Notes: a model not told the origin generated them from the sequence alone. 64,000 bases of DNA from Rhizobiales bacterium PAR1 (GCA_002256205.1 NKIW01000011.1:10055-74054); one strand, 5' to 3'. Counted from the first letter of the stretch, positions 10,988 through 34,236 are shown. Numbers and translations: made by a program.

Positions 10988-10988
<1 letters not shown>
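9225..10988 (+). CDS. LivM-family permease fused to a LivG-family ATPase
   Basis: N-terminal LLGYAGQKSLGQAG...LRVKGPSLAMVTLAFG; C-terminal Walker A GPNGAGKTT and LLDEPAAG. Confidence 0.92.
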
Positions 10989-11702
<714 letters not shown>

Positions 11703-11710
<8 letters not shown>

Positions 11711-13330: not shown

Positions 13331-13381
13331 CCTCTTTTTGCCGCCCGTCGGGCTGGTGAGCACCAAGACAAGAGAACCGTT

Positions 13382-15082: not shown

Positions 15083-15116
15083 AGCCCCCGGAGATATCCC
15101 GTTGAACCCGCCCAAA

Positions 15117-15521
15117 ATGCCCGAGAGCTATCCGTTCTGGACCATGGACAAGATCCGCTACGGCGACACCGACAAGCTTGGCCATGTCAACAACGCGGTC
15201 TTCGCAACCTTCCTCGAAACCGGGCGGGTCGATATGCTCTGCCATCCGACCATGTCGCTGAACGACCCCGGTACGGCCTATGTGCTGGCACGCCTCGCTT
15301 GCGATTTTCACGGCGAGGTGGTCTGGCCCGGCGAAGTGAAGATCGGCACGCGCATCGCGTCGATCGGGCGCTCCTCGCTCCAGTTGCAACAGCTCGTGCT
15401 GCAAAACGATGTCGCAGTCGCCAGTGGTGAAACCGTGCTGGTGCAGATGGATGAGACAACGCGAAAATCGCGCTCTTTCTCACCGGAACTGCGCGAGATG
15501 CTCGAAAAAATGGTGAAGTAG
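15117..15521 (+). CDS. Acyl-CoA thioesterase (4-hydroxybenzoyl-CoA thioesterase/YbgC hot-dog family)
   Basis: RYGDTDKLGHVNNAVFATFLETGR motif. Start may be 15102 or 15117. Confidence 0.9.
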   Translation: MPESYPFWTMDKIRYGDTDKLGHVNNAVFATFLETGRVDMLCHPTMSLNDPGTAYVLARLACDFHGEVVWPGEVKIGTRIASIGRSSLQLQQLVLQNDVAVASGETVLVQMDETTRKSRSFSPELREMLEKMVK

Positions 15522-15544: not shown

Positions 15545-15862
15545 TCATTGCATCGGCGAGAAGAACGCCGGTTTGACGATCTTGTTTTCCATCTTCTCGA
15601 TATAGGCGCCCGTCTTCGGGATGAAGGCCAGCCAATCGGGGTCGGCGTAGAGCTTTTCACGGCGCTGCTCGCGCTCGGCGTGGCTCTCATAACGCCACAT
15701 CATCATGATCTGGTTGAGCGCGCCGACCTCGGTATAGAACCAGCCGACCGAGGGGCCGAGATAGCGGCAGTGAATCTCGAAGCCCTCCTGATGATAGAAC
15801 TTCAGGTAATCCTGCAGAAGGCCCGGCTTGATCGTGTAGGTGCGGATTTCAAAAATCGCCAT
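15545..15862 (-). CDS. NIPSNAP family protein
   Basis: IFEIRTYTIKPG...GALNQIMMMWRYES..ERE.RR..L..DPDW pattern; 105 aa. Confidence 0.9.
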   Translation of the reverse strand: MAIFEIRTYTIKPGLLQDYLKFYHQEGFEIHCRYLGPSVGWFYTEVGALNQIMMMWRYESHAEREQRREKLYADPDWLAFIPKTGAYIEKMENKIVKPAFFSPMQ

Positions 15863-15864
15863 TT

Positions 15865-17265
15865 TCAGCTCCTTGCGCCAAGGTAGCGCGGCAGATAGCG
15901 CCCCTTGCCAATCGCGCTCTCCATCAGCGCGCCATCGCGCAGGATGAAATCGCCACGGAGCACGGTATGCACGACGCGGCCCTTGAATTTCATCCCATCG
16001 TAAAGCGAATAACCGGCGCTGGATCGGAGATCATCAAGCGAGAGAACCCAGTCGACGGCAAGGTCCACCACCGCGAAATCAGCGTCGCGCCCCACGGCAA
16101 TCGCGCCCTTGGCATGGGCGAGTCCCATGGCGTTGGCGGCGTTGGTTGAGGTGAGTTCAGCGATGCGCTTGAGCGGCATTCCGCGCTTGTGATGCCCCTC
16201 AGTAAGCATCACCGGCAGCATGGTCTCCAGCCCCGGACAGCCGGGCGAAGCATCCCAGACCGAACCTGACTTGCTTGAGACATCGCGGTGGATGTGGTCG
16301 GTGCCGATGATATCGACGTGGCCATCAAGAATGCCTTGCCAGAGAGCATCGCAGTCCCTGCGGCTCCTGAGCGGTGGGTTGATCTTGCCGACATTCCCGC
16401 GACCCCAATCCTCATCGTGGGTGAGGTAATGCGGGCAGGTCTCGATACTGATCGCCGCGCCAGCGTTACGCTGCATCACGCCGGCCTCCAGCGCGGCGGC
16501 GGACGAGGTATGGACAATATGAATACGTGCGCCGTTCACCCGCGCGAGATAGGCGGCGCGCTGCACCGCATCGGCCTCGACGAAATCGGGGCGCGAGGCA
16601 TTCCAGGTTTTCAGCCCACCCTTGCCCTCGGGATCGCGCGCCTTCTCGCGGTTGCGTAACACCCAGGCGATTTCAATCGTCTCCGGATGCGGGCAAACAA
16701 CGCCGTTTGATGCAGCGGCCGCCTCACAGAGCCGGAAGAGGAAGCCGTCGTCGATATCCGGCAAGCCGAGGCGCGCGCCCTCGCCGCCCCGGTTGTTCAT
16801 GAAAATCTTGAACGAGGGCACGCCATAGCGCGCAGCGTAATCCGCTACACCCGCAAGCTGCGGCTCGGTAGAGATCACGAAATGATAGCCAAAATCAATG
16901 CGGCTTCCGGCTTCCGTGACCGCTTTCACGTCATCGAACAAGGTGTCGAAAGGCTCGGTCGCCATGAGGTAGGGGATGAAGGAGGTCACCCCACCGACCG
17001 CCGCCGCCGCCGTTTCCTGCGCAGCATCGCCTGCCACACGCGGGCGGGAAATATCCTTGCCGTGGCCGAGGTGGAGATGCGGATCAATCAAACCCGGCAA
17101 AACGACAAGGCCCGAGAGATCAATACGCTCGACCGGGGAACTTCCTGCATCGTAGGCCCCCAGCGCGATGATCTTGCCGCCTTTTGTGACGATATCACAC
17201 ACGGCGGGCTCACGATCCGGCAGCACAACCAGCCCGCCGGAAAAAAGGATGATCGGCTCGCTCAT
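15865..17265 (-). CDS. Cyclic amidohydrolase (dihydroorotase/allantoinase/hydantoinase family)
   Basis: PGLIDPHLH (HxH), SFKIFM (carbamylated Lys), HPE, HIVHTSS, ETCPHYL, KINPPLR, GTDH. Confidence 0.9.
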   Translation of the reverse strand: MSEPIILFSGGLVVLPDREPAVCDIVTKGGKIIALGAYDAGSSPVERIDLSGLVVLPGLIDPHLHLGHGKDISRPRVAGDAAQETAAAAVGGVTSFIPYLMATEPFDTLFDDVKAVTEAGSRIDFGYHFVISTEPQLAGVADYAARYGVPSFKIFMNNRGGEGARLGLPDIDDGFLFRLCEAAAASNGVVCPHPETIEIAWVLRNREKARDPEGKGGLKTWNASRPDFVEADAVQRAAYLARVNGARIHIVHTSSAAALEAGVMQRNAGAAISIETCPHYLTHDEDWGRGNVGKINPPLRSRRDCDALWQGILDGHVDIIGTDHIHRDVSSKSGSVWDASPGCPGLETMLPVMLTEGHHKRGMPLKRIAELTSTNAANAMGLAHAKGAIAVGRDADFAVVDLAVDWVLSLDDLRSSAGYSLYDGMKFKGRVVHTVLRGDFILRDGALMESAIGKGRYLPRYLGARS

Positions 17266-18644
17266 GGTGAACTCCCTTGTTGCGCCCCGGTGGCAAGCGC
17301 CTCGGCAAGAGGCGAAAAATCACACGCACCGGTCACGAGAAAGAAGGTTTCAAGCGCCTGAATGGCCGTGACGGGTAGCTGCCGCGCCGCATTGGCGCGG
17401 AATTTCGCCAGAACATCGATCTCATTGGCCGGGCGGCTCGCATTGCCGAACACATCATCGATGCGCGCCGACAAGGTGCGGCCATCGGCAAGGTGACAGA
17501 GAATTTCCGCCTCGAAGGCTTGCGGAAAGCGGTTCGGCTCCAATGGCTCCCAGCGGCTCTTTGCCGCAAGCGCAAGCACGGCTGGAAAAGCCTTTGCCGC
17601 GAAGGTATCGAGATCAACCTTGCCATCGATGAAGCGCGCGGCCACCGCAATCGGCAGGCTCCAACGCGCTGCATGGCCATCCGGTGGGTCAAGCTTGTCC
17701 GACCATGGCTCGCACACAATCGGCGCCGCACCGGGCGCGATGCGCAAAACCAGTTCGGAAATCCCGGTCGGATCGCGGATCTCACCCGCAAGCTTGCCAG
17801 CCGCTTCGACGAACGGGTGGAGATAATGACAACAGGGCAGGAATTTGAACGCGACATCCGCCATGTGCCAGGTCGAGCCCAAATCTGCCAGGAGCGCAGC
17901 AAGTCGCGCAGGAGCGGCATCATCGCGCGCAAACGCAGCAAACAGCCCGCGCGTACCTTCAATGGCGGTCTCCGGCCCCGTCAGGCCCGCGATTGCGAGC
18001 CGCGCGGCAAGAATACCGGCATGGGCCGCCCAACCGGGGTGCATGGATTTGACCGAGGAGCCGTTCGAGAGAAACTCGAAAACACCCGAAGCCTGACTGA
18101 GCGCAATGCCCATGGCATGAACGCTCGCGTCCTCATCAGCACCCATCAGTTCCGCCGCCATCAGCGCCGCGACGAGCGACCCCGCGACCGAGGTGATCTG
18201 GAAACCGTTGCGCTGGAAGCCACCTTGCGCCGCAAGCCCGATGCGGATCAGCACCTCATAGCCAAGAATATAGGCCCGGAGTGCAGCCTCTGGCGCAACC
18301 GCACGATCCTGCGCCACGGCAAGCACGGTCGGCACCAGCACCGCGCTGCCATGGACGATGGAACCGGTATGGGTGTCATCAAATTCGAGCGAATGAATGA
18401 GCCCGCCATTCACCAGCGCCGCATCGGCCGCACTCGCGAGAGTACCGCCATTGAGCAGGCTGATCTTGCCTTCTCCTCCAGCAGAAAAGCGCCGGTAGGG
18501 CTCGCCCTGCGGGGTGGAACTCGCGGCGACACCAACGCCGACAATGTCGAGCATATGCAGCCGAGCCGCCGCGCACACCGCATCTGGAATCGGCGCATCC
18601 CTGAGGTTCCGCCAGCGCCGGACGATGTTCCGCGAGAGGGTCAC
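17262..18644 (-). CDS. MmgE/PrpD family protein (copy B)
   Basis: Start re-called to GTG 18644 (GTGA overlap with upstream gene); NGGLIHSLEFDDTH, HGSAV, KSMHPGWAA, FKFLPCCHYLH. Confidence 0.9.
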   Translation of the reverse strand: MTLSRNIVRRWRNLRDAPIPDAVCAAARLHMLDIVGVGVAASSTPQGEPYRRFSAGGEGKISLLNGGTLASAADAALVNGGLIHSLEFDDTHTGSIVHGSAVLVPTVLAVAQDRAVAPEAALRAYILGYEVLIRIGLAAQGGFQRNGFQITSVAGSLVAALMAAELMGADEDASVHAMGIALSQASGVFEFLSNGSSVKSMHPGWAAHAGILAARLAIAGLTGPETAIEGTRGLFAAFARDDAAPARLAALLADLGSTWHMADVAFKFLPCCHYLHPFVEAAGKLAGEIRDPTGISELVLRIAPGAAPIVCEPWSDKLDPPDGHAARWSLPIAVAARFIDGKVDLDTFAAKAFPAVLALAAKSRWEPLEPNRFPQAFEAEILCHLADGRTLSARIDDVFGNASRPANEIDVLAKFRANAARQLPVTAIQALETFFLVTGACDFSPLAEALATGAQQGSSP

Positions 18645-20011
18645 GCGGCTATCCCCCCGATTTCGCTGGCGGCCGTCAATCCCGCGAGGCGCCCAAGCGC
18701 GATTGCTGTGAGCAGCCCGTTGCCGGAAGCATAACCCAACGCGCCCGCCTTGCCGGAAATGCCCGCTGCCGCGCCGCCGCCCGCAAAAAGACCGGGAACC
18801 GGCGTGCCATCGGTGCAGAGCACGCGCGCATTGCCATCCACACGAAGTCCACCCTGTGTATGGAAGAGGCCCGGCACGACACGACAACCGTAGAATGGCC
18901 CCTTGAGCGCGCCGAGGCCAAAATTGGAGCGCCCGAAAGTGTCCTTTGCCTCGCCATTTGCCGCGAGATTGTAGGCCTCCACAGCATGCACGAGTTCCGT
19001 GCCATCCAGCTCGAACATCGCGGCGAGTTCGGGAAGCGTTTCCGCCTTTTTCACCCCGCCGTAGCGGACGAGTTCCATGAACTCTTCTTCAAGCGCGGCA
19101 ACCTCGAAAATCTTCTGATCGAACACTGCAAAGGCGTATTCGCCCTGCTCAAGCACGACGCGGGCATAGCCGGAGTAGCCCAGACTCTCGTCGCCGAAGC
19201 GCTTCGCATCGGCCCCGACAAGAATGCCGCCCTTCTCCATCGTGGTCCAAGACAGGAGGCTCCCGTGCGGATAAGCCACCGCTGCATAGCCCTGATAGGC
19301 GCCCATATTGGCAAGCGCTGCGCCGATCTTCAGGCCCCAGCGCACCGCTTCACCATGCGAGCCGAGCGCGCCGAAATACTGCGCACCCGCGATTTCTGGG
19401 CAATATTGCTTCACGAGCGTGGGATCGGCGGCAAAGCCATTGACCGCAAGGATGGTCTTTTGCGCGCGGATTTCAAACGCTCCTTCGCCCGCATTGACCC
19501 GCGCGCCGAGAACCGTGCCGTTCTCGACAATCAAGTCTTCCACCGCATTGCCGACTGCGAGCGGGATTTCACGTTTGGCAATCGCTGCGAGAAAATCATC
19601 GACAAGGTCCTGCCCGCGCCGCGAGACCGGTGCATGCAGCCGCTGGATCGAATGCCCGATGTGCTTGTAGGCCGTGATCAGCACGATGCGCGCGCCCACC
19701 GTATCAACGAGCCACTCCACGGTTTCGGCAGAAACCTCGGCCATGCGCCGGACAAGCGCGAGATCCTCGGTCTCCTTGGCGATGCCCATCAGATCCGCGA
19801 CCATTTTTTCAGGCGAATCCGTAAGGCCTGCTTCGCGCTGAAAACGCGAGTTCGCCGCCGGAACCGAGCCTGTCGAAAGCGAGGAATTGCCGCCGGGGCG
19901 CTCACGCTTCTCGACAATCGCCACCGAAGCGCCAGCGTCATGCGCGGCGATTGCCGCGGCGAGCCCGCAGGCGCCCGCGCCGATCACGAGGACATCGACG
20001 TCGAAATTCAT
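18641..20011 (-). CDS. FAD-dependent oxidoreductase (fumarate reductase/TcuA flavoprotein-like, FAD_binding_2)
   Basis: GAGACG, GGNSSLSTG, KRFGDE, FHTQGG, GLFAGG, GYASGNGLLTA. Confidence 0.85.
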   Translation of the reverse strand: MNFDVDVLVIGAGACGLAAAIAAHDAGASVAIVEKRERPGGNSSLSTGSVPAANSRFQREAGLTDSPEKMVADLMGIAKETEDLALVRRMAEVSAETVEWLVDTVGARIVLITAYKHIGHSIQRLHAPVSRRGQDLVDDFLAAIAKREIPLAVGNAVEDLIVENGTVLGARVNAGEGAFEIRAQKTILAVNGFAADPTLVKQYCPEIAGAQYFGALGSHGEAVRWGLKIGAALANMGAYQGYAAVAYPHGSLLSWTTMEKGGILVGADAKRFGDESLGYSGYARVVLEQGEYAFAVFDQKIFEVAALEEEFMELVRYGGVKKAETLPELAAMFELDGTELVHAVEAYNLAANGEAKDTFGRSNFGLGALKGPFYGCRVVPGLFHTQGGLRVDGNARVLCTDGTPVPGLFAGGGAAAGISGKAGALGYASGNGLLTAIALGRLAGLTAASEIGGIAA

Positions 20012-21417
20012 GACTGTTTTCCCATCTCAATGACGCAGTCGCGCCACGGCCGATCATCCGCTGCCGAGGGCTTGAGTAGTGCCACCAGCGGTGAGACCAT
20101 GCCGGGAAGCGCGGTGCCGGCGTTCTCGGCAAGCTTGGCAATCAGTGTCGCCTCGTCAAAAGGCTGATCCGCGCCGCCGCGTGCATTGAGGCAGGAGGCA
20201 GTATGACGCTCGCCATTCGCCATCACCCAGGTGAGGCGCGCTGCGCGATCATTCGGCCAGGGCTCAAGTTTTTCGAGCGGCTTCAGCGTGACCTTACGCC
20301 GCAGGGCAGAGATGCTGGGATCGACTCGCGCCGCGCTTGAGAAGGCGGCCTGTCCGCCGGTGCCGAGCCGGGCGACCGCTGCCGACGCATGCGGCATGGA
20401 GAATTTGGCGGCAAGCACGGTGGCCGGTTCCACGCCGGTCAGCGTGAGCCCACGCGGATGCGTCTCAACCTCGATGGCGGCAATCTGGTTCCGCGCGTCC
20501 GGCCCGAGGCGGGCATGGAGTTCCAGCGCCGCCTCGATCATCGAATGCGCATACTGGCAGCAGGCGAAAATCTTGTGATAGCCCTGTGCGATGGCCCAGC
20601 GCATGCCGAGCTCGCGGTCGAGTTCATCCGGCTTGCAGGTGGTGCCGAAGCAGACCGCGAAAACATCGTAAGCCGTCTCAGGGATTCCCGCGATACCCGC
20701 CAGCGCCCAATCCACCGCGCGGAAGGCGATGAACCCGTTCGCCGCCGTCCAGGCGTTACGGATCAGCGCGCCATCAATCGCATGGCCATAGGGGCCGGCG
20801 AAGGTCATGCTGGCCGCCCCGGTGATCGCATCGAGAAGCTGGTTTGGTGTGAGCCTTCGCAACAGGCCGATGCCGGCGGTCGCACCAATCGTGGCGTAAG
20901 CGGCATGCGGATGCACGCTCATGGTCGCAAAGGGAAAGGCCTCGGCAAAGCGCGCGGTGATGTCATAGGCAATCGCGAGGGCGCGCAGGGTCTCACCGGT
21001 CGTGGCACCGCTGGCCTCGGATTCCGCGACCAGCGTCGGCCAGATACAGGCGCCGGCGTGACAGGGGGCGAGGCGATACCCCTCATCCAGCTCGCACCAA
21101 GTCGCCGCCATGCCGTTGGCGATGGCCGAACCGACGCGGTTGAGGCGCGGCAAGCCGCTTGCGAAAACGCCCGCCTCGTCACCCGGAAAGGCGCGTGTTT
21201 CAACGGCGCGCGCGGCGATGACTTCCGGCTCGGTCGAGGCCGCTACAGCTGCACCAAGATCATCCATCAGCACGAGGGCCGCGCGGTAGCGGATCGCCTC
21301 GGGCAAGGGCTTGGCGAAGGCGGAAACCGCCCATGAGCAGAGGTTTTCGAGCGCTTGCGCCGAGCGCGCCCGCTCGTCCGCATTCACACCGGGCGCAACG
21401 CTCAGAACCATTTCCAC
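20008..21417 (-). CDS. MmgE/PrpD family protein (copy A)
   Basis: ANGMAATWCELDEGY, HAGAC, YHKIFACCQYAH, AAKFSMP, RGGADQP. Confidence 0.9.
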   Translation of the reverse strand: MEMVLSVAPGVNADERARSAQALENLCSWAVSAFAKPLPEAIRYRAALVLMDDLGAAVAASTEPEVIAARAVETRAFPGDEAGVFASGLPRLNRVGSAIANGMAATWCELDEGYRLAPCHAGACIWPTLVAESEASGATTGETLRALAIAYDITARFAEAFPFATMSVHPHAAYATIGATAGIGLLRRLTPNQLLDAITGAASMTFAGPYGHAIDGALIRNAWTAANGFIAFRAVDWALAGIAGIPETAYDVFAVCFGTTCKPDELDRELGMRWAIAQGYHKIFACCQYAHSMIEAALELHARLGPDARNQIAAIEVETHPRGLTLTGVEPATVLAAKFSMPHASAAVARLGTGGQAAFSSAARVDPSISALRRKVTLKPLEKLEPWPNDRAARLTWVMANGERHTASCLNARGGADQPFDEATLIAKLAENAGTALPGMVSPLVALLKPSAADDRPWRDCVIEMGKQS

Positions 21418-22085
21418 AAATCCGTATTGGCCGAGAGTTCGGCTGCTGCCCCGTCAAAAACAATGCCGCCGGACTTGATGATCACGGCGCGATCGACGAG
21501 TTTCAGCGTCGCGGGGACATTCTGCTCGACGACAATCAGCCCCATGCCAAAGCGCGCATTCACATCGCGCAGGCGGTCCATCACATTGCGCACGATGACC
21601 GGCGCAAGACCGGTCGAGGGTTCGTCGAGCAACAGCCACTTCGGTCGGGTCATGATCGCCATGCCGAGCGCCAGCATCTGCTGTTCGCCACCGGACATCG
21701 AACCCGCGCGCTGGGCGCGGCGCTCATGCAGCACCGGGAAGAGGTTGAACACCTCGGGCAGAAGGTCCGAGCCGAAGGGCAGGCCCGCAATCTTGAGGTT
21801 CTGCTCGACCGAGAGCGTCGGGAAGACATTGTGCCCCTGCGGCACAAAGGCGATGCCCTTCGACACCGTCTCCGGCACATTGCCCTCCGGCAGGGCTTCA
21901 CCGTTCCAGGTGATCGACCCGCCGCTCTTGGCATGCGCGCCGATGATGGAGCGCAGCAGCGTGGTCTTGCCCGCGCCGTTATGGCCGAAAATCCCGACCT
22001 TCGTGCCATCCGGGATCGAGAGCGAGAGATCGCCGATCACGGTGAGAAGGCCATAGCGGGCAACGAGGTTCCTGATTTCCAGCAT
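21402..22085 (-). CDS. livF: LivF-family ABC ATPase
   Basis: GHNGAGKTT, MSGGEQQMLAL, LLDEPSTGLAP. Confidence 0.93.
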   Translation of the reverse strand: MLEIRNLVARYGLLTVIGDLSLSIPDGTKVGIFGHNGAGKTTLLRSIIGAHAKSGGSITWNGEALPEGNVPETVSKGIAFVPQGHNVFPTLSVEQNLKIAGLPFGSDLLPEVFNLFPVLHERRAQRAGSMSGGEQQMLALGMAIMTRPKWLLLDEPSTGLAPVIVRNVMDRLRDVNARFGMGLIVVEQNVPATLKLVDRAVIIKSGGIVFDGAAAELSANTDLWKWF

Positions 22086-22088
22086 GGT

Positions 22089-22847
22089 TCAGGTCCCGAA
22101 ATAGAGTTCAGTGAGTTGCGGATCGGCGATCAGGGTCTCGACCGTGCCGCGCGCCAGCACCTTGCCCGCGAACATGAAGACGCCCTCGTCGCAAAGATCG
22201 CGGATGAAGGCGACGTTATGCTCGACGACGCAGATCGCGACGCCACTCGCGGCGATATCGCGCACGACCTTCTGGATCAGCGCATAGGCCTGCCCCTCAA
22301 CGCCGGCCATCGGCTCATCCAGCAGCAGGCATTGGGCGTCGTTCATCAGCGCGCGGGCGACGCCAACGAGCTTCTGCTGGCCGAAGGTGATATCGCGGAT
22401 CGGCTGATGCGCGATACCCGCCAGACCGGTGCGCTCCAGCACGGCGAAGGCCCGCTCGCGGCTTTCACGCTCGGAGTCGGCAACATGGCCGGGCCGGAAG
22501 ACGACATCGAGCAGGTTGTCGGCGCTATAGGCGCGTGGGCCAAGCATCAGATTGTCGAGCACCGACAGCGAGGAAAAGAGGCGCAAATTCTGCCAGGTCC
22601 GCGCAAGACCCATGCGGGCGCGCTCGCGGATCGGCAGACCGTTGATCTCCTGCCCGACAAGCGTGATCGAACCGGAATCCGGCTTTACCACACCACAGAC
22701 GAGGTTGAAGAACGAGGTCTTCCCGGCACCATTTGGCCCGATCAGGCCGAGCACGCGCCCCTTGGCCAGCGCGAGGTCGATATTGTCGGCGACAACAATG
22801 CCGCCGAAGCGCTTGTTGAGGCCGGAGACTTTGAGCACATCAGCCAT
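22089..22847 (-). CDS. livG: LivG-family ABC ATPase
   Basis: Start ATG 22847; GPNGAGKTS, GLARTWQ, LLDEPMAG. Confidence 0.93.
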   Translation of the reverse strand: MADVLKVSGLNKRFGGIVVADNIDLALAKGRVLGLIGPNGAGKTSFFNLVCGVVKPDSGSITLVGQEINGLPIRERARMGLARTWQNLRLFSSLSVLDNLMLGPRAYSADNLLDVVFRPGHVADSERESRERAFAVLERTGLAGIAHQPIRDITFGQQKLVGVARALMNDAQCLLLDEPMAGVEGQAYALIQKVVRDIAASGVAICVVEHNVAFIRDLCDEGVFMFAGKVLARGTVETLIADPQLTELYFGT

Positions 22848-23730
22848 CCCGGCGCTCCTTGCTGTCACGCCCCGCCCAGATATCGGGCGCAGCGAGAAGG
22901 CCTTGCGGGCGCGCGAACATGAAAACGAGCACAAGGCCGGAGAACATCAGCCCCTGCAACGGTCCGAGAATGCTCGGCGGCAAGCCGAAAAACGTGATCG
23001 CCTGCGGCAGGATCTGGAGAACAATGGCGCCGATCACCGGCCCGAGTGTTGTCCGCATTCCGCCGACCACAACCATCGTGAGGATCGCGGAGGATTGCAA
23101 AAGCCCGAACTGATCCGGCTCAAGAAAGCGGAAATAATGCGCGTAGAGCCCGCCGGCGATGCCCGCGATGCCCGAGCCAATCGCAAAGATTGACACTTTC
23201 ACCCAGATCGCGTTGCGCCCGAGCATGGAGAAGGCGAGTTCGTCATCGCGCATCGCTGCCATCATCCGGCCATAGGGACCGCGCGTCAGCCAGCGTACGA
23301 AGAGCACCGTCAGCAAGGCAATCGCCAGCACGAGAAGCACGTAGCTCACTCGGCCATAAGTGTTGACAAGGAACGGCGGGATATTCGTGAGCCCACCCGC
23401 GCCACCGATGCTGTGAATATGCTTGGCGAACTCAATAAGCCCTAATTGAAAGCCGATGCTGGCGATCAGGAGATAATCGCCCGAAACCCGCAGCGAAGGC
23501 AGCGCCACCAGTACCGAGGCAGCAAAAGCCGCCGCTCCACCCGCCAGCATCGCGAGAGGGATCGGCATGCCGCCTTCTTTCGCAAGCATCGCCGAGACAT
23601 AGGCACCGATGGCGTAGAAGATCGGATGGGCGATGGAGATCAGCCCGCAATGCCCGATCACGAGATCGAAGCTTGAGGCGAGGATCACGAAAAGGCCGAT
23701 CAGGATCAGAATGGTGTAGACATAATCCAT
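22840..23730 (-). CDS. livM: LivM-family ABC permease
   Basis: GHCGLISIAH, LRVSGDYL, GRMMAAMRDDE, VVGGMRTTLGP. Confidence 0.92.
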   Translation of the reverse strand: MDYVYTILILIGLFVILASSFDLVIGHCGLISIAHPIFYAIGAYVSAMLAKEGGMPIPLAMLAGGAAAFAASVLVALPSLRVSGDYLLIASIGFQLGLIEFAKHIHSIGGAGGLTNIPPFLVNTYGRVSYVLLVLAIALLTVLFVRWLTRGPYGRMMAAMRDDELAFSMLGRNAIWVKVSIFAIGSGIAGIAGGLYAHYFRFLEPDQFGLLQSSAILTMVVVGGMRTTLGPVIGAIVLQILPQAITFFGLPPSILGPLQGLMFSGLVLVFMFARPQGLLAAPDIWAGRDSKERRDG

Positions 23731-23733
23731 TGC

Positions 23734-24672
23734 TCAGCCCCCCTTCCCGTCCGCCGCGATCACGGGCGCGGCGACGGTGCGTTTGAGAGCCTTGCTGCGC
23801 TCGGGCAGGCGGAACCCACTCGGAAACAGCACGATGGCGAAGAACAGGAAAGCGTAGAGCAGGAACCCCTGCCAGGCCGAGGGGATGAACAGGATCGAGC
23901 TGTTCTGCACCACGCCGAGGACAACCGCAGCCAGTGCCGCACCCCAGAGATTGCCGATGCCGCCGAGAATGGTCGCGGCCACCGCGAAGAGCATGAGCTC
24001 GGTCGCCGCCGCTGGCTGAACCTGCGCGCGGGTGCCATAGAGAAACATGCCGACGCCGCAGATGAGCCCCGCGATCAGCATCGAAACCATCAGCACGCGG
24101 TCCTTGCGGATGCCATAGAGTTCCGCAAGATCGGCGTTATCCGCCACTGCGATCATGAACTGGCCATAGCGCGTGAAGCGCAGGAAGGCCCAGAGGCCAC
24201 TAAGCACAGCGACGGTCGCGAGGATCGCGGGGATATCCCAGGCGCTCACAGCAACATCGGCGACCAACGTCACCGGCCAGAACATCGAGGCGAAGATCGT
24301 CGTTGGCCAGGTGCCGAAGATCATCGTCATCGCGTAGGTGATGAACTGCGAAGCGACGAGCGTGAAGATGAAGACGAACATCGGCGAGGCCTTGCGGTGC
24401 CGCAGCACGGAAAAGCCGAAGCGTTCGAGCACGAAGGCCATAGCGGCACCGCCTGCCAAAGCCGCGATAAAACCTGCCGGTCCCGGCAGACCAACAACAC
24501 GCACGGCAACATAAGCCGCATAAAATCCGCAGGTCATCATGCCAGCTTGGGCAAAATTGAAGACCTTGTTGACCTTCAGAACCAGCGCGAACGCCAGTGC
24601 GAACAGCACGAAGTAACTGGAGGTCGCAAGCGACGTCCAGAGAATCTGGCTGATCACGGTAGCGTTCAACAT
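23734..24672 (-). CDS. livH: LivH-family ABC permease
   Basis: VFNFAQAG, TRYGQFMIAVADN, ILGGIGNLWG. Confidence 0.92.
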   Translation of the reverse strand: MLNATVISQILWTSLATSSYFVLFALAFALVLKVNKVFNFAQAGMMTCGFYAAYVAVRVVGLPGPAGFIAALAGGAAMAFVLERFGFSVLRHRKASPMFVFIFTLVASQFITYAMTMIFGTWPTTIFASMFWPVTLVADVAVSAWDIPAILATVAVLSGLWAFLRFTRYGQFMIAVADNADLAELYGIRKDRVLMVSMLIAGLICGVGMFLYGTRAQVQPAAATELMLFAVAATILGGIGNLWGAALAAVVLGVVQNSSILFIPSAWQGFLLYAFLFFAIVLFPSGFRLPERSKALKRTVAAPVIAADGKGG

Positions 24673-24699
24673 GGTGGGTTATCCTTGGTCAGACGCGAA

Positions 24700-24722
24700 C
24701 CGGAGGGCGGAAGGCCCTCCGG
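24700..24722 (-). terminator. Intercistronic hairpin after the SBP gene
   Basis: CCGGAGGGC-ggaag-GCCCTCCGG. Confidence 0.55.
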
Positions 24723-24749
24723 CTTTGCTGCGTTACAGAGTACGCCCGC

Positions 24750-25919
24750 TCACTTGTTGACGACGGCCTTGCCGGTCCATTTGCCGCCCTTTACCTCGAC
24801 GAGGTAGACGGGCTTGTTGACGGTGTGATCATCCGCAAAGGTCACCTTGCCGGTCAGCGGCAGATCAAAGGTCTTGATCGTCAGCATCTCTTTACGGAAA
24901 TTCTCGCCGGTGATCGGGGTGCCCTTCTTGTCGAGCGAAGCGAATACCGCCGCCACGAGATAGGGCGAGTCATAGAGATACTGCGTATAGGGGAGGCCGT
25001 TCGGCGGGCGACCCACTTCCTTCACCCAGCGCTCGACGTAGGTCTTCACAGCGGGGGAATCCTCAACGCCCGGCGCGAGCGAGGTTGCGATCACGCCTTC
25101 TGCTGCCGCACCGAGCTGTTCGATGAGCTTGGGGTTGTAGATGCCCGAATAGGAAGTAATCGGCACGGTGATGCCAAGCTGGCGCGCCTGAGCGATCACC
25201 TGCGGTGATTCCGAGACAAGGCCCTGAAGGTGGATGATCTCGGGGTTCGACGCACGGATCTTGAGCAGCGGACCGGTAAAGTCGGTGGCCTTCTGGTCAT
25301 AGGCCTCATAGGCCACGACCTGCCCGCCCGACTTGGTGAAGGTATCGCGATAGACCTCCGCCGAACCAATACCGGTCTCGTTGTTGATGAAGAGCACGGC
25401 GGCCTTCTTCTTGCCCATCTCCTTGGCGGAATAGGCCGCGACAGCGCGGATATCGACGTCCGCCAGCGGGAAGGTCGTGTAGACATAATCGCCGAGCTTG
25501 GCGATATCCGGCGCATTCGCCCCAACCGAGAGTTCGACAATCTTGTTGTCGTTGGCGATCGGCGCAACGGCCTTCACAACCCCCGACCACGCGGTGATGA
25601 ACACCGGCGTCTTGTCTACGCTGATCATGCGGTTGACCGCCTGAATGCCGACCTGCGGATCGGCCTGCGTATCGAGGACGACCATCTCGAACTTCTTGCC
25701 GTTGATGCCGCCTGCCTTGTTGATCTCGTCCACCGCCCACTGAGCAGCCTTGACCTGATCATTGCCGTAAAGCGCCTGTCCGCCAGTCAGCGGCATGGCG
25801 AGGCCAAACTTCAGCGAGGCCTGCTGCGCGAGCGCAAGGCCCGAGGTGGCGGAAAGAAGCACGAGGGCAAGCGCCGTCCTGCGTCCGATGGAAAGTCCCG
25901 TCATGGTCCTGTTGGTCAT
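24750..25919 (-). CDS. LivK-family ABC substrate-binding protein
   Basis: GRRTALAL signal; INKAGGINGKKFEMVVLDTQAD; DFTGPLLKI. Confidence 0.92.
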   Translation of the reverse strand: MTNRTMTGLSIGRRTALALVLLSATSGLALAQQASLKFGLAMPLTGGQALYGNDQVKAAQWAVDEINKAGGINGKKFEMVVLDTQADPQVGIQAVNRMISVDKTPVFITAWSGVVKAVAPIANDNKIVELSVGANAPDIAKLGDYVYTTFPLADVDIRAVAAYSAKEMGKKKAAVLFINNETGIGSAEVYRDTFTKSGGQVVAYEAYDQKATDFTGPLLKIRASNPEIIHLQGLVSESPQVIAQARQLGITVPITSYSGIYNPKLIEQLGAAAEGVIATSLAPGVEDSPAVKTYVERWVKEVGRPPNGLPYTQYLYDSPYLVAAVFASLDKKGTPITGENFRKEMLTIKTFDLPLTGKVTFADDHTVNKPVYLVEVKGGKWTGKAVVNK

Positions 25920-25940
25920 GTCTGCACTCCCGTTATTGGT

Positions 25941-26642
25941 TCAGGTTGTTTTGGGGATCGATTTCAGGGCCGAAAGGATGTCGTCGGTCGGCATGACATC
26001 CGCATATTTCTCCGACATGTCGAAAAGGTTCACCGCATGCGAGACCTCCGAGCGGTCGAACACCGCATCCTGAGGCACCATCACTCGGAAATTATAGGCA
26101 AAACCGTCGACCACCGTGCCGCGCACGCATCCAGATGTAGAGCAACCGGTGACAATCAAGGTGTCCGCCCCCGTGTTGATCAGGTAGCTCGCAAGTGGCG
26201 TGCCGAAAAACGCGCTCGGATGCTTCTTGGGAACGAGAATGTCCTTCTCTGAAGGTGCTATCTCGGCCACGAACTCGTAGCCTTTTGCGGCAACACCCAT
26301 GATCGCCGGCACCTTGTCCGAGAGGCGCCCCGCGTCAAAAGTCTGCTTGGGCGAAACGTAAGGGTAAAGCACCGGCCAGCCATTCTCGCGGAAGACCGCC
26401 AGAAGCCGCGCGATATTACCAACAGCATCCCACGCGACCTCACCGCAGGAGGTCGGGAATTCTTTGATCGCTTCCCAGAACGGGCGGCGCTCGGTGCCGA
26501 CAGTGCGATATTGTACGTCGATGATCAGCAGTGCTGGCTTCTTGCCAAAACCGGTCGGACGACCAAATCCGGCAGCGCGATAGGCCTTCTGCTCGTTTTC
26601 GGAAATCAGGTGATCCCAGGGACGTTTGGGGGGCGTGCTCAT
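25941..26642 (-). CDS. Isochorismatase-family cysteine hydrolase (maleamate/N-carbamoylsarcosine amidase-like)
   Basis: Start ATG 26642; Asp-Lys-Cys triad in IIDVQ, KKHPSAFFGT, GCSTSGCVRGT. Confidence 0.9.
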   Translation of the reverse strand: MSTPPKRPWDHLISENEQKAYRAAGFGRPTGFGKKPALLIIDVQYRTVGTERRPFWEAIKEFPTSCGEVAWDAVGNIARLLAVFRENGWPVLYPYVSPKQTFDAGRLSDKVPAIMGVAAKGYEFVAEIAPSEKDILVPKKHPSAFFGTPLASYLINTGADTLIVTGCSTSGCVRGTVVDGFAYNFRVMVPQDAVFDRSEVSHAVNLFDMSEKYADVMPTDDILSALKSIPKTT

Positions 26643-26652
26643 GGGGGGCTCC

Positions 26653-27516
26653 TCAGACCTTGTATTTCGCTTCAAGCGCATCCCAGCGCGGCTTGGCGAC
26701 CGCGTTCTGGCGCTCCTCGAAGGAGGCAAGCTTATCGGCCACGCGGTCGAGCGAACCATGCTCCTTGAGCGAGGATAGCACCTCGAAAGAAGCACGCAGC
26801 GCCGCCTGCAAGGCCGCATTGGCATAGAGCACGCCCGCGAAACCCATCTCGGCGAGTCGCGCACGGCCGGGGTCCGGCGTCTTGCCGCCGAAGACGATGT
26901 TGGCGATCTGCGGCACCGGGAGTTCCTTCGCGATGCGCACCATCTCGTCAAATGAGGTCGGCGCCTCGACAAAAGTCGCCGTCGCGCCCGCCTCGATGAA
27001 CGCATGGGCGCGGTCGATTGCGGCATCAAGCCCCTCGATCGCCCGGGCATCGGTCCGCGCGACGATCTGGAAATCCGCATCGCCACGCGCATCGACGGCT
27101 GCCTTGATCTTGGCGATCATTTCGGAGAGTGGAATGACTTCCTTGCCGTTGAAGTGGCCGCATTTCTTCGGGAAAACCTGATCCTCGATCTGGATGCCCG
27201 CGGCCCCTGCCCGCTCCAGCACTTTCACCGTGCGCGTCATGTTCACAGCATTGCCGAAACCGGTATCGGCATCGACAAGCATCGGCAGGTTGATGGCGTC
27301 CGCCGTTGCCGCCGTGACATTGGCAATTTCGGTGAGGGTTGTGAGGCCAATATCCGGCGCGCCGAGGTGCATGTTGGCGATGCCCGCGCCAGTTAGGTAG
27401 CAGACCTCAAAGCCCAATTCCTCGATCACGCGCGCAAACATCGCGTTGGCCGCACCGGGAAAGGTGATGCCCCGACGCGCGCCAAGCAGCGTCTTGAGCC
27501 GGGTGGTCGTCCTCAT
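26653..27516 (-). CDS. Isocitrate lyase/PEP mutase superfamily C-C lyase (PrpB/2,3-dimethylmalate lyase-like)
   Basis: DADTGFG, IEDQVFPKKCGH (catalytic Cys loop), ARTDA, FVEAP. Confidence 0.92.
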   Translation of the reverse strand: MRTTTRLKTLLGARRGITFPGAANAMFARVIEELGFEVCYLTGAGIANMHLGAPDIGLTTLTEIANVTAATADAINLPMLVDADTGFGNAVNMTRTVKVLERAGAAGIQIEDQVFPKKCGHFNGKEVIPLSEMIAKIKAAVDARGDADFQIVARTDARAIEGLDAAIDRAHAFIEAGATATFVEAPTSFDEMVRIAKELPVPQIANIVFGGKTPDPGRARLAEMGFAGVLYANAALQAALRASFEVLSSLKEHGSLDRVADKLASFEERQNAVAKPRWDALEAKYKV

Positions 27517-28202
27517 ATGCGCGGCTCCGACGTGCTGGTTTGGGTGCGGAAGGTGGTTTGAGTATTACGCCACGAAGAGCGGATATGTGCCCGCATCGCT
27601 TCTTCGGCGCGCGCGGGATCACGACTGCGCAGCGCTTCGACAATCGCGCGGTGCTCGTTGCGCGCCTCGATGGCGCGGCCCGGCGTGAGGCTGGAACGGA
27701 AGCGGTAGAGCCGCATCACGTCGTAGAGCTCGTCCGAAAGCGCCCGGAACAGGCGCTGGTTGTGGCTCGCGCGGGCAATACCGAAATGGAAATCCTGATC
27801 GCCGCCCGGTTGGTAATACGACTGCCCCGAGGCCACTTCAGGCCGCACCGCATGACCGCGCAGGCTCTCCTCGAGCACCACAAGCTCCGCATCGGTGATC
27901 CGCTCGGCGGCAAGACGGCAAGCCATGCCCTCCATCGCCTCGCGCAATTCGAAGAGGCTCCTGAGATCATCGAGCGTGAGATCCACGACTCGGGCGCCGA
28001 AATGCGCAACGCGCGTCGCAAGGCCCTTGGCCTCAAGGCGAAAAATTGCCTCGCGCGCCGGGCCGCGACTAACCCCGAACCTCAGCGCGATCTCGTTCTC
28101 GCTGATCGGGCTGCCGGCCTCGATCTCACCAACGACAATGGCTTCCACCACACGGGCGAAAACCTGATCGGCGAGGGTCTGGCGGGTGACGCTGTCTCTC
28201 AT
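27513..28202 (-). CDS. GntR/FCD-family transcriptional regulator
   Basis: Start ATG 28202; GVSRGPAREAIFRLEAKGL wHTH; DQDFHFGIA, EHRAIVEAL, AMRAHI FCD motifs. Confidence 0.93.
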   Translation of the reverse strand: MRDSVTRQTLADQVFARVVEAIVVGEIEAGSPISENEIALRFGVSRGPAREAIFRLEAKGLATRVAHFGARVVDLTLDDLRSLFELREAMEGMACRLAAERITDAELVVLEESLRGHAVRPEVASGQSYYQPGGDQDFHFGIARASHNQRLFRALSDELYDVMRLYRFRSSLTPGRAIEARNEHRAIVEALRSRDPARAEEAMRAHIRSSWRNTQTTFRTQTSTSEPRI

Positions 28203-28209
28203 GTCGTAA

Positions 28210-28237
28210 ACTGTAGACAGTATGCGATTTGTGTCAA
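28210..28237 (-). promoter_or_regulatory. Sigma70-type promoter with an overlapping palindromic GntR-type operator
   Basis: Minus strand TTGACA (28237-28232), 16 nt, TACAGT (28215-28210). The palindrome ACTGT-AG-ACAGT (28210-28221) overlaps the -10. Confidence 0.6.
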
Positions 28238-28392
28238 CGGCCCTGATGCGCCTTTTGAACGCACGTTCAAAGACTGGGTTCGGGAACCGGTTTGGCTGAG
28301 CAAAGCGCATCAGGACGACGGCACGCGGGGTCGATTGCCAGTAGCAAGACAGCCGGGGGAAATATGCGTCCGGGAGGTATTCCAGCGAGAAA

Positions 28393-28437: not shown

Positions 28438-29937
28438 TCAGTCTTCGTTCGCCTTGAACTTGTTCAAACCGCCCGCCACATAGGGTGCGATGAGCGCGAG
28501 GAAGGCGACACCGAGCAGCGTCGCGGCAATCGGGCTTTGCACCAGCACGAGCGGATCGCCAATGCTGATCTGAAGCGCGCGGCGGAACTGGCTTTCGGCC
28601 ATCGGCCCGAGGATCAGCCCCACGACCATCGGCGCGACAGGATAGTCATAGCGCCGCATCAGGAAGCCGATGATGCCGAAACCGAGCAGCATCAGGAGTT
28701 CAGCAATCGAGCCCTTGGTCGCGATCGACCCCATCGCGGCGAACATCAGGATGCCGGCATAGAGCCACGGTGTCGGGATTTTCAGCAGCTTCACCCAAAT
28801 GCCAACCAGCGGCAGGTTCAGCACCACGAGCATCGCGTTGGCGATGAAGAGGCTGGCGATGAGGCCCCAGACGAGATCAGGCTTCTCCGCGAACAACAGT
28901 GGGCCGGGGTTGAGTCCGAACTGCTGGAAGCCCGCAAGCATGATGGCCGCGGTCGCCGAGGTTGGCAAGCCGAGCGAGAGCAGCGGCACCAGCGTACCGG
29001 CCACCGAGGCATTGTTGGCCGCCTCAGGCCCCGCGACGCCTTCAATCGCGCCAATGGTGTCCCATTCCTCGGGGTGCTTCGAGAGCCGTTTCTCGGTCGA
29101 ATACGACAGGAAGGTTGGGATTTCCGCACCGCCCGCTGGCAGCGCGCCAATCGGGAAGCCATACATGGTGCCGCGCAGCCACGGCTTCCACGAACGCTTC
29201 CAGTCCTCCTTCGACATCCAGAGCGAGCCGGTCATCTGCATGACTTCCTCGGCAACCCGGTGACGCGAGACAACAAACATCGCTTCGCCAATGGCAAAGA
29301 GTCCCACCGCCAACGTCGTGACTTCCACGCCGTCGAGCAGTTCCGGCAGGCCGAACGTCAGTCGAGACTGGCCCGTCAGTTTGTCAATGCCGATGAGACC
29401 GAAGGCGAGACCGCAAAACAGACTGATGAGCCCCTTGAGCGGCGAATCACCGAAGGTCGCCGAGACGGTGATGAAGGCCACCACCATCAGCGCGAAGTAA
29501 TCCTCCGGGCCGAATTGCACCGCGAACTTCACCATCCACGGCGCCAGAAATGCGATGCCCGCCGTCGCGATAAAACCGGCGATGAAGGAGCCGATGGCCG
29601 AGGTCGCAAGCGCAGGCCCGGCGCGGCCGCTTTTGGCCATCAGGTTGCCTTGCAAGGCCGTCGCCATCGAGGCGCTTTCGCCCGGCGTGTTGATGAGGAT
29701 CGAGGTCGTCGAGCCGCCGTACATCGCGCCGTAGTAGATGCCGGCGAACATGATCAGTGAGCCAGAGGGGTCAAGCTTGAAGGTGATCGGCAGAAGAAGC
29801 GCCACCGTTACCGCCGGGCCGATACCCGGTAACACACCAACCGCCGTACCAAGCAGCACGCCGACAGAAGCATAAAGGAGGTTTGCCGCCGTCATTGCGA
29901 CGGTGAAACCCGACATCAAGGCATAAAAGGATTCCAT
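28438..29937 (-). CDS. tctA: Tripartite tricarboxylate transporter large permease
   Basis: [37 protein letters not shown]. Confidence 0.95.
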
Positions 29938-29946
29938 CGCCGCACC

Positions 29947-30429
29947 TCAGCCCAGAAGCCGTTCAAGCGGGCCTTGCGGCAGCGAGAGCGTCAGGAGTTT
30001 CGAAAACAGGAGGTAGATAAGCGTCGAGAGCACAACCCCGATCGCGAGATCAACCAGAACCGCGCGGCGACCGAAGGCGAATGATGTGATCGCAAAGAGC
30101 ACTGCCATAGCCGGGACGAACCCGCCGCCAAAACCGATCATCGCCGTAAGTACGAGGAACCCGATCACCAGAATGCCGACCGGGCCAAAATCCGCTTCTT
30201 CAGGCTCGGTTCCGGCACTGCGGAAGCCGGAGAGGATAGAGAGCAACCCGAGCAGAACAAGTCCAGCCGCAATGATCTTCGGCACTACAGCAGGGCCGAT
30301 ACCGTAGGCCACGACGCTGCCAAGACTCACAGCGTCGGCCCAGAGAATACCGGCCAGCGCCAGCATGAGAAAGCCGACAACAATGGCCGGCTTGTCACGC
30401 CCCTTGGGCGCGCTTGTGGATTGAGACAT
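29947..30429 (-). CDS. tctB: Tripartite tricarboxylate transporter small permease
   Basis: Four TM segments, GIGPAVVPKI, C-terminal LTLSLPQGPL; lies between tctC and tctA. Confidence 0.9.
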   Translation of the reverse strand: MSQSTSAPKGRDKPAIVVGFLMLALAGILWADAVSLGSVVAYGIGPAVVPKIIAAGLVLLGLLSILSGFRSAGTEPEEADFGPVGILVIGFLVLTAMIGFGGGFVPAMAVLFAITSFAFGRRAVLVDLAIGVVLSTLIYLLFSKLLTLSLPQGPLERLLG

Positions 30430-30489
30430 GGTTCCCCCCCTGAACGTCCCTGATGCCAGCCTTCTTGTCGGGCGGCTTTTTGAAATGAT

Positions 30490-30512
30490 CCTTCCCGCCA
30501 GAGGCGGGAAGG
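30490..30512 (-). terminator. Intercistronic hairpin after tctC
   Basis: CCTTCCCGCC-aga-GGCGGGAAGG, a perfect 10-bp stem. Confidence 0.6.
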
Positions 30513-30530
30513 CAACGTCTTACATTGTGC

Positions 30531-31499: not shown

Positions 31500-31626
31500 T
31501 TTGTTCCCTCCAACTGACGCCCGACAGGGCGTGCGTCGGTTAGGAAAGTAGCGTCGTTCTTTTCCCAGACAAGGAAAAACAACGACGAGAAGATGCAATC
31601 AGGGCCGGACCTCGCCCTTCAGCTGA

Positions 31627-34230: not shown

Positions 34231-34236
34231 CAGGGT

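Follow-up and report, generated by a model that had tools for sequence, protein, structure and literature searches.

Which compound is consumed by the thirteen-gene operon that occupies positions 15545–28202 of a 64,000-nucleotide (nt) stretch of Rhizobiales bacterium PAR1 (GCA_002256205.1, NKIW01000011.1:10055-74054; the whole stretch is called the window below)? The genes lie on the minus strand, abutting or overlapping one another, and all of the open reading frames are present and intact, as a preliminary description of this DNA had proposed; the gene families named there are also those that Pfam assigns to all 13 proteins (Table 1). They comprise a GntR/FCD regulator, a carbon–carbon lyase of the isocitrate lyase/phosphoenolpyruvate mutase (ICL/PEPM) superfamily with a KKCGH loop, an isochorismatase-family Cys-hydrolase (the amidase), a five-gene Liv-type ATP-binding cassette (ABC) importer, two MmgE/PrpD paralogues (PrpD-A and PrpD-B), a flavin adenine dinucleotide (FAD) flavoprotein, a cyclic amidohydrolase and a NIPSNAP-domain protein. 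The operon is plasmid-borne: repC and repB stand at 32828–35394, next to a PIN/Phd pair, and place the window on a repABC replicon; the host genome has a size of 4.2 Mb.

The reading that we favour, and to which we give about an even chance of being correct, is GntR-repressed catabolism of a carboxylated cyclic imide, or of a cyclic amide close to it, that is taken up from outside. The succession of import, ring opening, deamidation, desaturation, hydration and cleavage that was originally put forward for these genes fits all of the results, and from here on we infer the substrate class, the order of the steps and the reactions of PrpD-A, PrpD-B and the flavoprotein. The Liv-type ABC system would import the compound, a task that would fall to TRAP or Tct-type systems in other lineages. 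The binuclear-metal cyclic amidohydrolase would open the ring to a half-amide, from which the maleamate-amidase-like Cys-hydrolase would free ammonia, leaving a nitrogen-free substituted succinate or tricarboxylate. PrpD-B would serve as an epimerase-type helper, the TcuA-like flavoprotein would desaturate, and PrpD-A would act as a (de)hydratase-type enzyme, together giving a 2-hydroxy acid of the malate or isocitrate type; in Betaproteobacteria the aconitase AcnA would also take part. The KKCGH lyase, which resembles PrpB and the petal death protein, would split the 2-hydroxy acid into a 2-oxo acid and a carboxylic acid. Induction would occur when the GntR/FCD repressor leaves a single ACTGT-NN-ACAGT operator in response to the substrate or an intermediate.

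This logic is strengthened because the amidohydrolase and amidase genes travel together in a genome in which the set is split (Humitalea), because AcnA adjoins the lyase in the betaproteobacterial version, as in PrpD–aconitase–PrpB chemistry, and because the catalytic residues are invariant in all three of the hydrolase and lyase families. Compatible with the chemistry, as suggestions of our own, are imides of tricarballylate or of alkylsuccinates, 2,6-dioxopiperidine-4-carboxylate or citrazinate, and hematinic and dihydrohematinic imides. Once the substrate is identified, five enzyme subfamilies would gain a function together, the MmgE/PrpD family, for which four activities have been characterised, would be extended by new reactions, and it would become clear which nitrogen-containing ring acid is abundant enough in soils and lakes for a dedicated mobile operon to persist.

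Conservation and variation of the gene set

The gene set is kept as a unit elsewhere, a point on which the original proposal depended. A ten-gene core (amidase, binding protein, LivH-, LivM-, LivG- and LivF-type genes, PrpD-A, FAD flavoprotein, PrpD-B and amidohydrolase) has an identical gene order in 25 complete loci, with protein identities of 50–90%. Its carriers are Hyphomicrobiales and Acetobacteraceae/Rhodospirillales, and thus belong to at least two alphaproteobacterial orders; many contig-truncated loci agree with the same gene order. All four ABC permease and ATPase genes are syntenic in every complete locus of the alphaproteobacterial type. The lyase gene stands in front of the core in 19 of the 25 complete loci, and a GntR gene, co-directional or divergent depending on the locus, is adjacent in 17. 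Flanking genes vary from genome to genome, so the unit has sharp borders, which exclude the upstream tctCBA genes of PAR1; and because the core order recurs in 25 independent loci with differing flanks, the arrangement is not due to chance. Twelve of the thirteen genes form a conserved unit in Hyphomicrobiales, and to that extent the thirteen-gene unit first described stands; the NIPSNAP gene is not part of the core. It directly follows the amidohydrolase gene in six loci only (the window and five close relatives), all from one subclade, and is an accessory last gene of that subclade's operon.

These loci were collected by a pattern scan of one genome per species, which found relatives in 139 of 185,579 species genomes; 80 loci were retrieved, and the final locus maps were made with tblastn and blastp against reference proteins. 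Many of the loci are contigs of metagenome-assembled genomes (MAGs), the taxonomic labels of which are possibly wrong. Many PrpD-A orthologs were found, at 55–93% identity. Within a sample from the same order, a PrpD-A ortholog occurs in one of 300 other genomes, and it occurs in neither of two genomes of the same genus, a sparse distribution that fits a mobile accessory operon. Carriers include Methylobacterium, Microvirga, and lake and soil MAGs. Those in culture (Methylobacterium platani, M. aquaticum, M. currus, Microvirga vignae, Enterovirga aerilata, Bradyrhizobium sp. LHD-71 and Humitalea sp. 24SJ18S-53) make the substrate question directly testable.

Departures from the core order divide the set into parts. 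The lyase gene is missing from seven complete loci (L010, L025, L038, L046, L048, L070 and L071), mostly with Acetobacteraceae/Rhodospirillales labels. PrpD-B is missing from two Microvirga loci, where this protein is dispensable. The complete genome of Humitalea sp. 24SJ18S-53 carries PrpD-A, the FAD flavoprotein and PrpD-B at ~2.04 Mb, and adjacent amidase, amidohydrolase and GntR genes together with a TctC-type binding protein at ~1.46 Mb. The two sites are ~0.6 Mb apart, have TctC-type binding proteins beside both, and represent a split into a hydrolytic module and an acid-processing module.

In ~30 betaproteobacterial loci the same enzyme families are re-assorted, with PrpD-A directly adjoining PrpD-B. 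The flavoprotein (36–38% identity) and the amidohydrolase (38–40%) are distant orthologs there, and the amidase (67–69%) is a close one. The PrpB-like lyase of these loci adjoins a genuine AcnA aconitase (1264 bits, cut-off 686), and TRAP (tripartite ATP-independent periplasmic) transport, a LysR regulator and CobW-type metallochaperones are also present. Frequent additions are an Asp/Glu/hydantoin-racemase-family protein, an alpha/beta hydrolase, a PIG3-type zinc-dependent alcohol dehydrogenase (Zn-ADH), a 2-oxoglutarate/iron (2OG-Fe) oxygenase and a second dihydropyrimidinase-like enzyme; the racemase-family gene stands beside the PrpD pair in 22 fetched loci, all from the betaproteobacterial group. 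An amidase ortholog is present genome-wide in nine of ten betaproteobacterial genomes with PrpD-A and PrpD-B, even outside the fetched flank. From these variants we conclude that the pathway consists of five modules: ring opening with deamidation, the PrpD/FAD trio, the lyase with or without aconitase, a carboxylate transporter and a regulator.

The neighbourhoods of the unlinked betaproteobacterial amidase genes contain no consistent extra enzyme; the neighbours include a methyltransferase, an aldo-keto reductase, a reductase of the old yellow enzyme (OYE) type and a protein of 302 amino acids (aa). The last is conserved after the amidase ortholog in two loci (L112, 8824–9732; L113, 8982–9890) and has no Pfam match; it could take the place of the amidohydrolase as a ring-opening enzyme not yet recognised as such. 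Two further loci combine betaproteobacterial labels with the alphaproteobacterial gene order, at 57–84% identity: L012, from a MAG labelled Hydrogenophaga, includes the NIPSNAP gene, and L077, from a MAG labelled Burkholderiales, carries the divergent GntR gene of the Methylobacterium type. Either horizontal transfer or a binning error would explain them.

Enzymes and import system

Assignment to named enzymes was assessed by comparing bit scores with the curated cut-offs of NCBIfam models. None of the enzymes reaches the cut-off of its nearest named enzyme, which agrees with the earlier statement that the set matches no named pathway. The amidohydrolase belongs to the clade of allantoinase, hydantoinase, dihydropyrimidinase and dihydroorotase, and its nearest solved structures are those of allantoinase and L-hydantoinase. 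It scores 266.6 bits with the allantoinase AllB model (cut-off 357.85), 239.9 with that of dihydropyrimidinase (393.25), 207 with that of dihydroorotase (482) and 203 with that of ErtD (600). Its metal ligands (HxH, carboxylated Lys, two His and Asp) are all present and are invariant in 46 orthologs. The amidase, at 67–85% identity the best-conserved enzyme across classes, matches maleamate amidohydrolases and N-carbamoylsarcosine amidohydrolase in the Protein Data Bank (PDB; entries 4l07/4l08 and 3ot4/3uao are among the matches), and its Asp-Lys-Cys triad is invariant in 44 orthologs. The lyase scores 285.4 bits with the prpB model TIGR02317, the cut-off of which is 354.4; its best PDB match is the petal death protein (1e-63), followed by 2-methylisocitrate lyases, and it is also related to 2,3-dimethylmalate lyase (8e-39). 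Its loop reads FPKKCGHF. In 33 orthologs the catalytic Cys, the Mg-binding Asp/Asp/Glu and an Arg are invariant, and the K, G and H of KKCGH are near-invariant. From their conserved catalytic residues, the amidohydrolase, the amidase and the lyase are all predicted to be working enzymes.

The characterised activities of the MmgE/PrpD family are 2-methylcitrate dehydratase, cis-aconitate decarboxylase (CAD), iminodisuccinate (IDS) epimerase and (S)-(R)-methylsuccinate isomerase (PMC12290011). All of these enzymes use an open-chain C4 1,4-dicarboxylate backbone, which is held by six conserved residues; in methylsuccinate isomerase the carboxylate ligands are His88, Glu91, His102, His152, Lys202 and Lys266 (PMC12290011). 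PrpD-A and PrpD-B, which share 26% identity, score 32.5 and 28.6 bits with the sole matching NCBIfam PrpD model (cut-off 950). PrpD-A is very divergent, and its only PDB match is IDS epimerase (2e-9). Across 70 orthologs it has the fixed changes His88 to Thr/Ala, Thr97 to Gly and Lys202/207 to Arg, and it keeps the positions aligned with Glu91 and with His103, His159 and Lys272 of CAD. PrpD-B has IDS epimerase and IRG1/CAD as its nearest structures (1e-33) and keeps the carboxylate ligands of the family except His152/159, which is replaced by Gln/Met in 57 of 58 orthologs. On these alignments, PrpD-A and PrpD-B are fixed and distinct subfamilies, which are MmgE/PrpD members by fold and the reactions of which are not assignable by homology.

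The flavoprotein scores 174 bits with the TcuA model NF006130 (cut-off 369) and 263 bits with a flavocytochrome c subfamily model (cut-off 285). Its nearest structures are the Shewanella fumarate reductases and urocanate reductase, and it has no cytochrome or flavin mononucleotide (FMN) domain. The position of Fcc3 Arg402 is occupied by Tyr in 53 of 53 alphaproteobacterial and betaproteobacterial orthologs and that of Glu378 by Trp in 52 of them; among the same 53, the His365 position is Tyr (alphaproteobacterial) or His (betaproteobacterial), His504 is Phe/Thr, and Arg545 is absent or replaced. The bona fide TcuA of the host genome (715 bits) has the same Tyr at the Arg402 position, and the other three Fcc3 residues are missing from it too. 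The initial label of a TcuA/SdhA-like flavoprotein therefore survives in its first half, the site being TcuA-like with a Tyr common to the TcuA of the genome, and fails in its second, the tetrad expected of an SdhA-, Frd- or NadB-like site being lost. A neutral-ring substrate, considered on account of the tetrad loss, was dropped, as the tricarboxylate-acting TcuA shows the same replacement of Arg by Tyr. This TcuA is encoded at G000:C18:443732-445114 (locus L092) next to a major facilitator superfamily (MFS) transporter, a pairing which indicates that tricarballylate is handled elsewhere in the genome.

The closest structures to the binding protein are amino-acid-binding homologs of the leucine–isoleucine–valine-binding protein (LIVBP), and these are distant (1e-27). 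A Salinarimonadaceae locus (L055) has TRAP DctPQM in place of the ABC system, and its DctP likewise has only distant structure matches (1e-22). TRAP and Tct-type transporter families characteristically carry carboxylates. A carboxylate substrate is indicated because the ABC system is replaced by TRAP, in L055 and the betaproteobacterial loci, or by Tct-type binding proteins.

Known systems and alternative readings

Parts of the operon have counterparts in several known systems. Blastobacter sp. A17p-4 reportedly degrades cyclic imides (Ogawa/Shimizu) with an imidase and a half-amidase, followed by dicarboxylate metabolism. That pathway is said to resemble the present proposal in its ring-opening hydrolase, its half-amide amidase that frees NH3 and the C4 dicarboxylate (maleate, D-malate) that follows, and to be known as biochemistry rather than as a gene cluster, with no PrpD pair, flavoprotein or ICL-family lyase. 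Its half-amidase is reportedly of the amidase-signature type, whereas an isochorismatase-fold Cys-hydrolase is present here. The 2-methylcitrate cycle (PrpC, PrpD, aconitase, PrpB) likewise has an MmgE/PrpD protein, an aconitase (as in the betaproteobacterial version) and a PrpB-like KKCGH lyase in series for the conversion of a branched hydroxy-tricarboxylate. However, none of the 13 genes and no gene in the maps of related loci belongs to the citrate synthase family (PrpC), both PrpD proteins are remote from 2-methylcitrate dehydratase and show active-site changes, the lyase falls below the PrpB cut-off and is nearer to the petal death protein, and the acid would arise by amide hydrolysis rather than by condensation. 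TcuABC shares the flavoprotein fold and the Tyr at Fcc3 Arg402 seen in the TcuA of the genome; unlike it, the operon has neither TcuB nor TcuC.

Aerobic nicotinate and picolinate catabolism is approached in its late steps (NicD, NicF, NicE), the amidase being a relative of the maleamate amidohydrolase NicF/Ami; in many betaproteobacterial loci an alpha/beta hydrolase is accompanied by an Asp/Glu-racemase-family protein, in the manner of NicD and NicE. The lyase recalls the Dml step of nicotinate fermentation in Eubacterium barkeri through its relation to 2,3-dimethylmalate lyase. In contrast to these routes, no hydroxylase, monooxygenase or ring dioxygenase is linked, and a metal amidohydrolase would open the ring. 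Methylsuccinate isomerase has been described as a helper epimerase that admits both stereoisomers of a substituted succinate (PMC12290011). PrpD-B is similar to it and to IDS epimerase (PDB 2hp0) in being nearest to the latter and dispensable in Microvirga; it differs in that the match reaches only 1e-33, the His152/His159 ligand is Gln/Met, and its context is unrelated to the itaconate cluster. We classify the operon as one that joins hydrolytic cyclic-amide catabolism to methylcitrate-type acid chemistry, with two uncharacterised MmgE/PrpD subfamilies. No publication linking these families to one substrate was found in full-text searches, the coverage of which excludes most subscription journals.

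Several results weigh against the imide reading. Allantoinase, hydantoinase and dihydroorotase are all equally distant from the amidohydrolase, and the amidase resembles N-carbamoylsarcosine amidase no less closely than maleamate amidase; a ureide substrate therefore retains some probability. Given the fixed changes at carboxylate-binding positions, the chemistry of PrpD-A and PrpD-B may differ from that of known members, and the PrpD-A/FAD/PrpD-B trio could act on the ring before hydrolysis. The operon lacks a gene for TcuB or any other electron-transfer partner of the flavoprotein, and the seven complete loci without a lyase mean that the cleavage step is not obligatory within the unit. Were the substrate a ureide, it would be a carboxylated hydantoin or dihydropyrimidine, such as an analogue of dihydroorotate, 5-carboxymethylhydantoin or hydantoin-5-propionate. 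The amidohydrolase, with allantoinase and L-hydantoinase as its best matches, would convert it to an N-carbamoyl amino-dicarboxylate. PrpD-B, nearest to IDS epimerase, would epimerise this product as that enzyme does N-substituted aspartate. The isochorismatase-type enzyme, which matches N-carbamoylsarcosine amidohydrolase over its full length (2e-29), would be a decarbamoylase like N-carbamoylsarcosine amidase, and the amino acid would then be oxidised and cleaved. The racemase-family gene beside the betaproteobacterial PrpD pair and the amino-acid ligands of the structures nearest to the binding protein point in the same direction. We nevertheless consider this route unlikely, if worth keeping in view. 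Aminotransferases, ammonia-lyases and amino-acid oxidases of known types are all absent from the conserved set, the flavoprotein does not have the NadB/Frd substrate residues, the downstream PrpB-like lyase and AcnA act on nitrogen-free acids, and the scores with all named ureide enzyme models are below cut-off. From hydantoin utilisation, both the M20- or nitrilase-type N-carbamoyl-amino-acid amidohydrolase and the hydantoin racemase are absent from the 13 genes. An imide is favoured over a ureide because two C–N hydrolases are paired, because no carbamoylase, aminotransferase or deaminase occurs in the conserved set, and because the downstream enzymes handle nitrogen-free acids; the most economical reading is that two hydrolyses leave an acid devoid of nitrogen.

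An order of steps in which the trio (de)saturates or tautomerises a pyridone- or pyrimidine-carboxylate ring before hydrolysis, with citrazinate (the tautomeric cyclic imide of aconitate) or a ring like that of orotate as examples, would end with the hydrolases freeing an aconitate-type acid that needs only aconitase and lyase. It would suit the translational coupling of PrpD-A, the flavoprotein, PrpD-B and the amidohydrolase by 4-nt overlaps, the presence of AcnA beside the lyase, and the addition in betaproteobacterial loci of the Zn-ADH, an ene-reductase-like enzyme of the PIG3 family, and of the second dihydropyrimidinase-like enzyme; by their family names, some FAD_binding_2 relatives desaturate cyclic ketone carboxylates. 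We think it distinctly unlikely, given that the characterised MmgE/PrpD enzymes all take open-chain 1,4-dicarboxylates (PMC12290011), that the trio lies apart from the hydrolases in Humitalea, and that neither a molybdenum hydroxylase nor a ring oxygenase is linked. A variant methylcitrate or tricarballylate pathway, juxtaposed by chance with an unrelated amino-acid ABC system and amidases, would explain the family names PrpD, PrpB-like and TcuA-like; it is scarcely credible and is already contradicted by the results presented here. There is no PrpC, the scores are below the cut-offs (PrpD 28–32 against 950, PrpB 285 against 354, TcuA 174 against 369), a true TcuA (715 bits) and its transporter are located elsewhere in the genome, one operator and one promoter serve the operon, and 25 loci share one gene order although their flanks are unrelated.

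A more specific form of the imide reading, which we regard as very unlikely, is that PrpD-A, the TcuA-like flavoprotein and PrpD-B constitute a new three-protein system which, with a metal imidase and a NicF-like half-amidase, consumes the monopyrrole imides of tetrapyrroles. Such imides would come from photo-oxidised chlorophyll, haem and bilins and would be used by bacteria of leaf surfaces, soils and lakes. The candidates are hematinic acid and its dihydro form derived from ring D, that is, 3-(2-carboxyethyl)-4-methyl-maleimide and -succinimide, which would be converted to a disubstituted malate and then to pyruvate or 2-oxoglutarate plus a second acid. The carrier habitats are compatible with tetrapyrrole imides, and no result is specific to that substrate. 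If this form were true, the operon would fill a gap in the picture of how tetrapyrrole nitrogen and carbon are recycled in the environment.

Regulatory sites and neighbouring genes

The gene starts were refined with start-codon checks and ortholog lengths, which for GntR are 223–224 aa. With the refined starts (Table 1), four junctions are 4-nt overlaps, and the largest gap inside the operon is 77 nt.

Table 1. Features of the operon and its upstream region, with positions counted from the first letter of the window.
Feature	Position	Strand	Remarks
GntR + FCD regulator	27513–28202	-	229 aa from refined start ATG 28202; Pfam GntR + FCD
ICL/PEPM-superfamily C–C lyase, KKCGH loop	26653–27516	-	4-nt overlap with GntR gene; Pfam PEP_mutase, 141 bits
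Isochorismatase-family Cys-hydrolase (amidase)	25941–26642	-	Refined start ATG 26642; Pfam isochorismatase
Periplasmic solute-binding protein, Liv type	24750–25919	-	Pfam Peripla_BP_6
LivH-type permease	23734–24672	-	Pfam BPD_transp_2
LivM-type permease	22840–23730	-	Pfam BPD_transp_2
LivG-type ATPase	22089–22847	-	Refined start ATG 22847; Pfam ABC_tran
LivF-type ATPase	21402–22085	-	Pfam ABC_tran
PrpD-A	20008–21411	-	Refined start ATG 21411; Pfam MmgE/PrpD
FAD flavoprotein, 456 aa	18641–20011	-	Pfam FAD_binding_2; 4-nt overlap with PrpD-A gene
PrpD-B	17262–18644	-	Refined start GTG 18644; Pfam MmgE/PrpD; 4-nt overlap with FAD gene
Cyclic amidohydrolase, binuclear metal	15865–17265	-	Pfam Amidohydro_1; 4-nt overlap with PrpD-B gene
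NIPSNAP-domain protein, 105 aa	15545–15862	-	Pfam 97 bits; 2-nt gap to amidohydrolase gene
Operator palindrome ACTGT-NN-ACAGT (here ACTGTAGACAGT)	28210–28221	.	Presumed GntR/FCD repressor site
Promoter-like site TTGACA-16 nt-TACAGT	28210–28237	-	10 of 12 consensus positions matched
Perfect palindrome TTGAACGCACGTTCAA	28255–28270	.	Upstream of promoter

Related loci, 1.37 Mb in all, contain 17 copies of the palindrome ACTGT-NN-ACAGT, against ~1.3 expected by chance; one more is present in the window and is the sole copy in the 4.2-Mb genome. Fifteen of the 17 copies lie ~50–160 nt upstream of the first operon gene, which is the lyase gene or, in L088, where the lyase has moved, the binding protein gene. 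A form with reversed halves, ACAGT-NN-ACTGT, stands directly upstream of GntR in L007. In PAR1 the palindrome overlaps the -10 element of a promoter-like site, which ends 8 nt before the GntR ATG; such sites were no more frequent in a promoter scan than in shuffled sequence, and position is the sole argument for this one. The GntR ATG is not preceded by a Shine-Dalgarno sequence. The missing Shine-Dalgarno sequence and the ATG 8 nt past the -10 suggest a leaderless mRNA, so the transcript of GntR, at once the regulator and the first gene, may have no leader. The simplest reading of this arrangement is an autoregulated GntR/FCD repressor that would control this operon alone.

A second palindrome type, with half-sites TTGAAC/GTTCAA, is present at 28255–28270 with a 4-nt spacer, ~20 nt upstream of the promoter -35, and at 28454–28467 with a 2-nt spacer, inside the 3' end of tctA. 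No further copy occurs in the 64-kb window, for which 0.01 would be expected, and the 4.2-Mb genome has just four in all. Among the orthologous upstream regions scanned, none showed the motif. The palindromes may bind a second regulator.

Immediately upstream of the operon, on the same strand, are tctC, tctB and tctA (28438–31598, minus strand), which encode a tripartite tricarboxylate transporter; they were rejected as part of the operon, being linked to it in no other locus. On the other side, a second catabolic operon (7079–15521, plus strand) converges on the NIPSNAP gene. It encodes a Liv-type binding protein, a permease, a fused permease–ATPase, an ATPase, an IclR regulator, a short-chain dehydrogenase/reductase (SDR), a 4HBT thioesterase and a KstD-like FAD oxidoreductase (PRK06134, 803 bits against a cut-off of 747) that is related to 4-oxocyclohexene-carboxylate desaturases. 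This operon too was rejected as part of the unit: homologs of the KstD-like protein occur near the cluster only in L008 (49% identity) and in L081, where the gene directly follows PrpD-B (41%). A functional link of a non-conserved kind is possible. The interval 31734–34150 holds, beside repC, the PIN/Phd toxin–antitoxin pair and a truncated alpha/beta hydrolase of 119 aa that matches Abhydrolase_3 in its C-terminal part only, a typical plasmid maintenance context.

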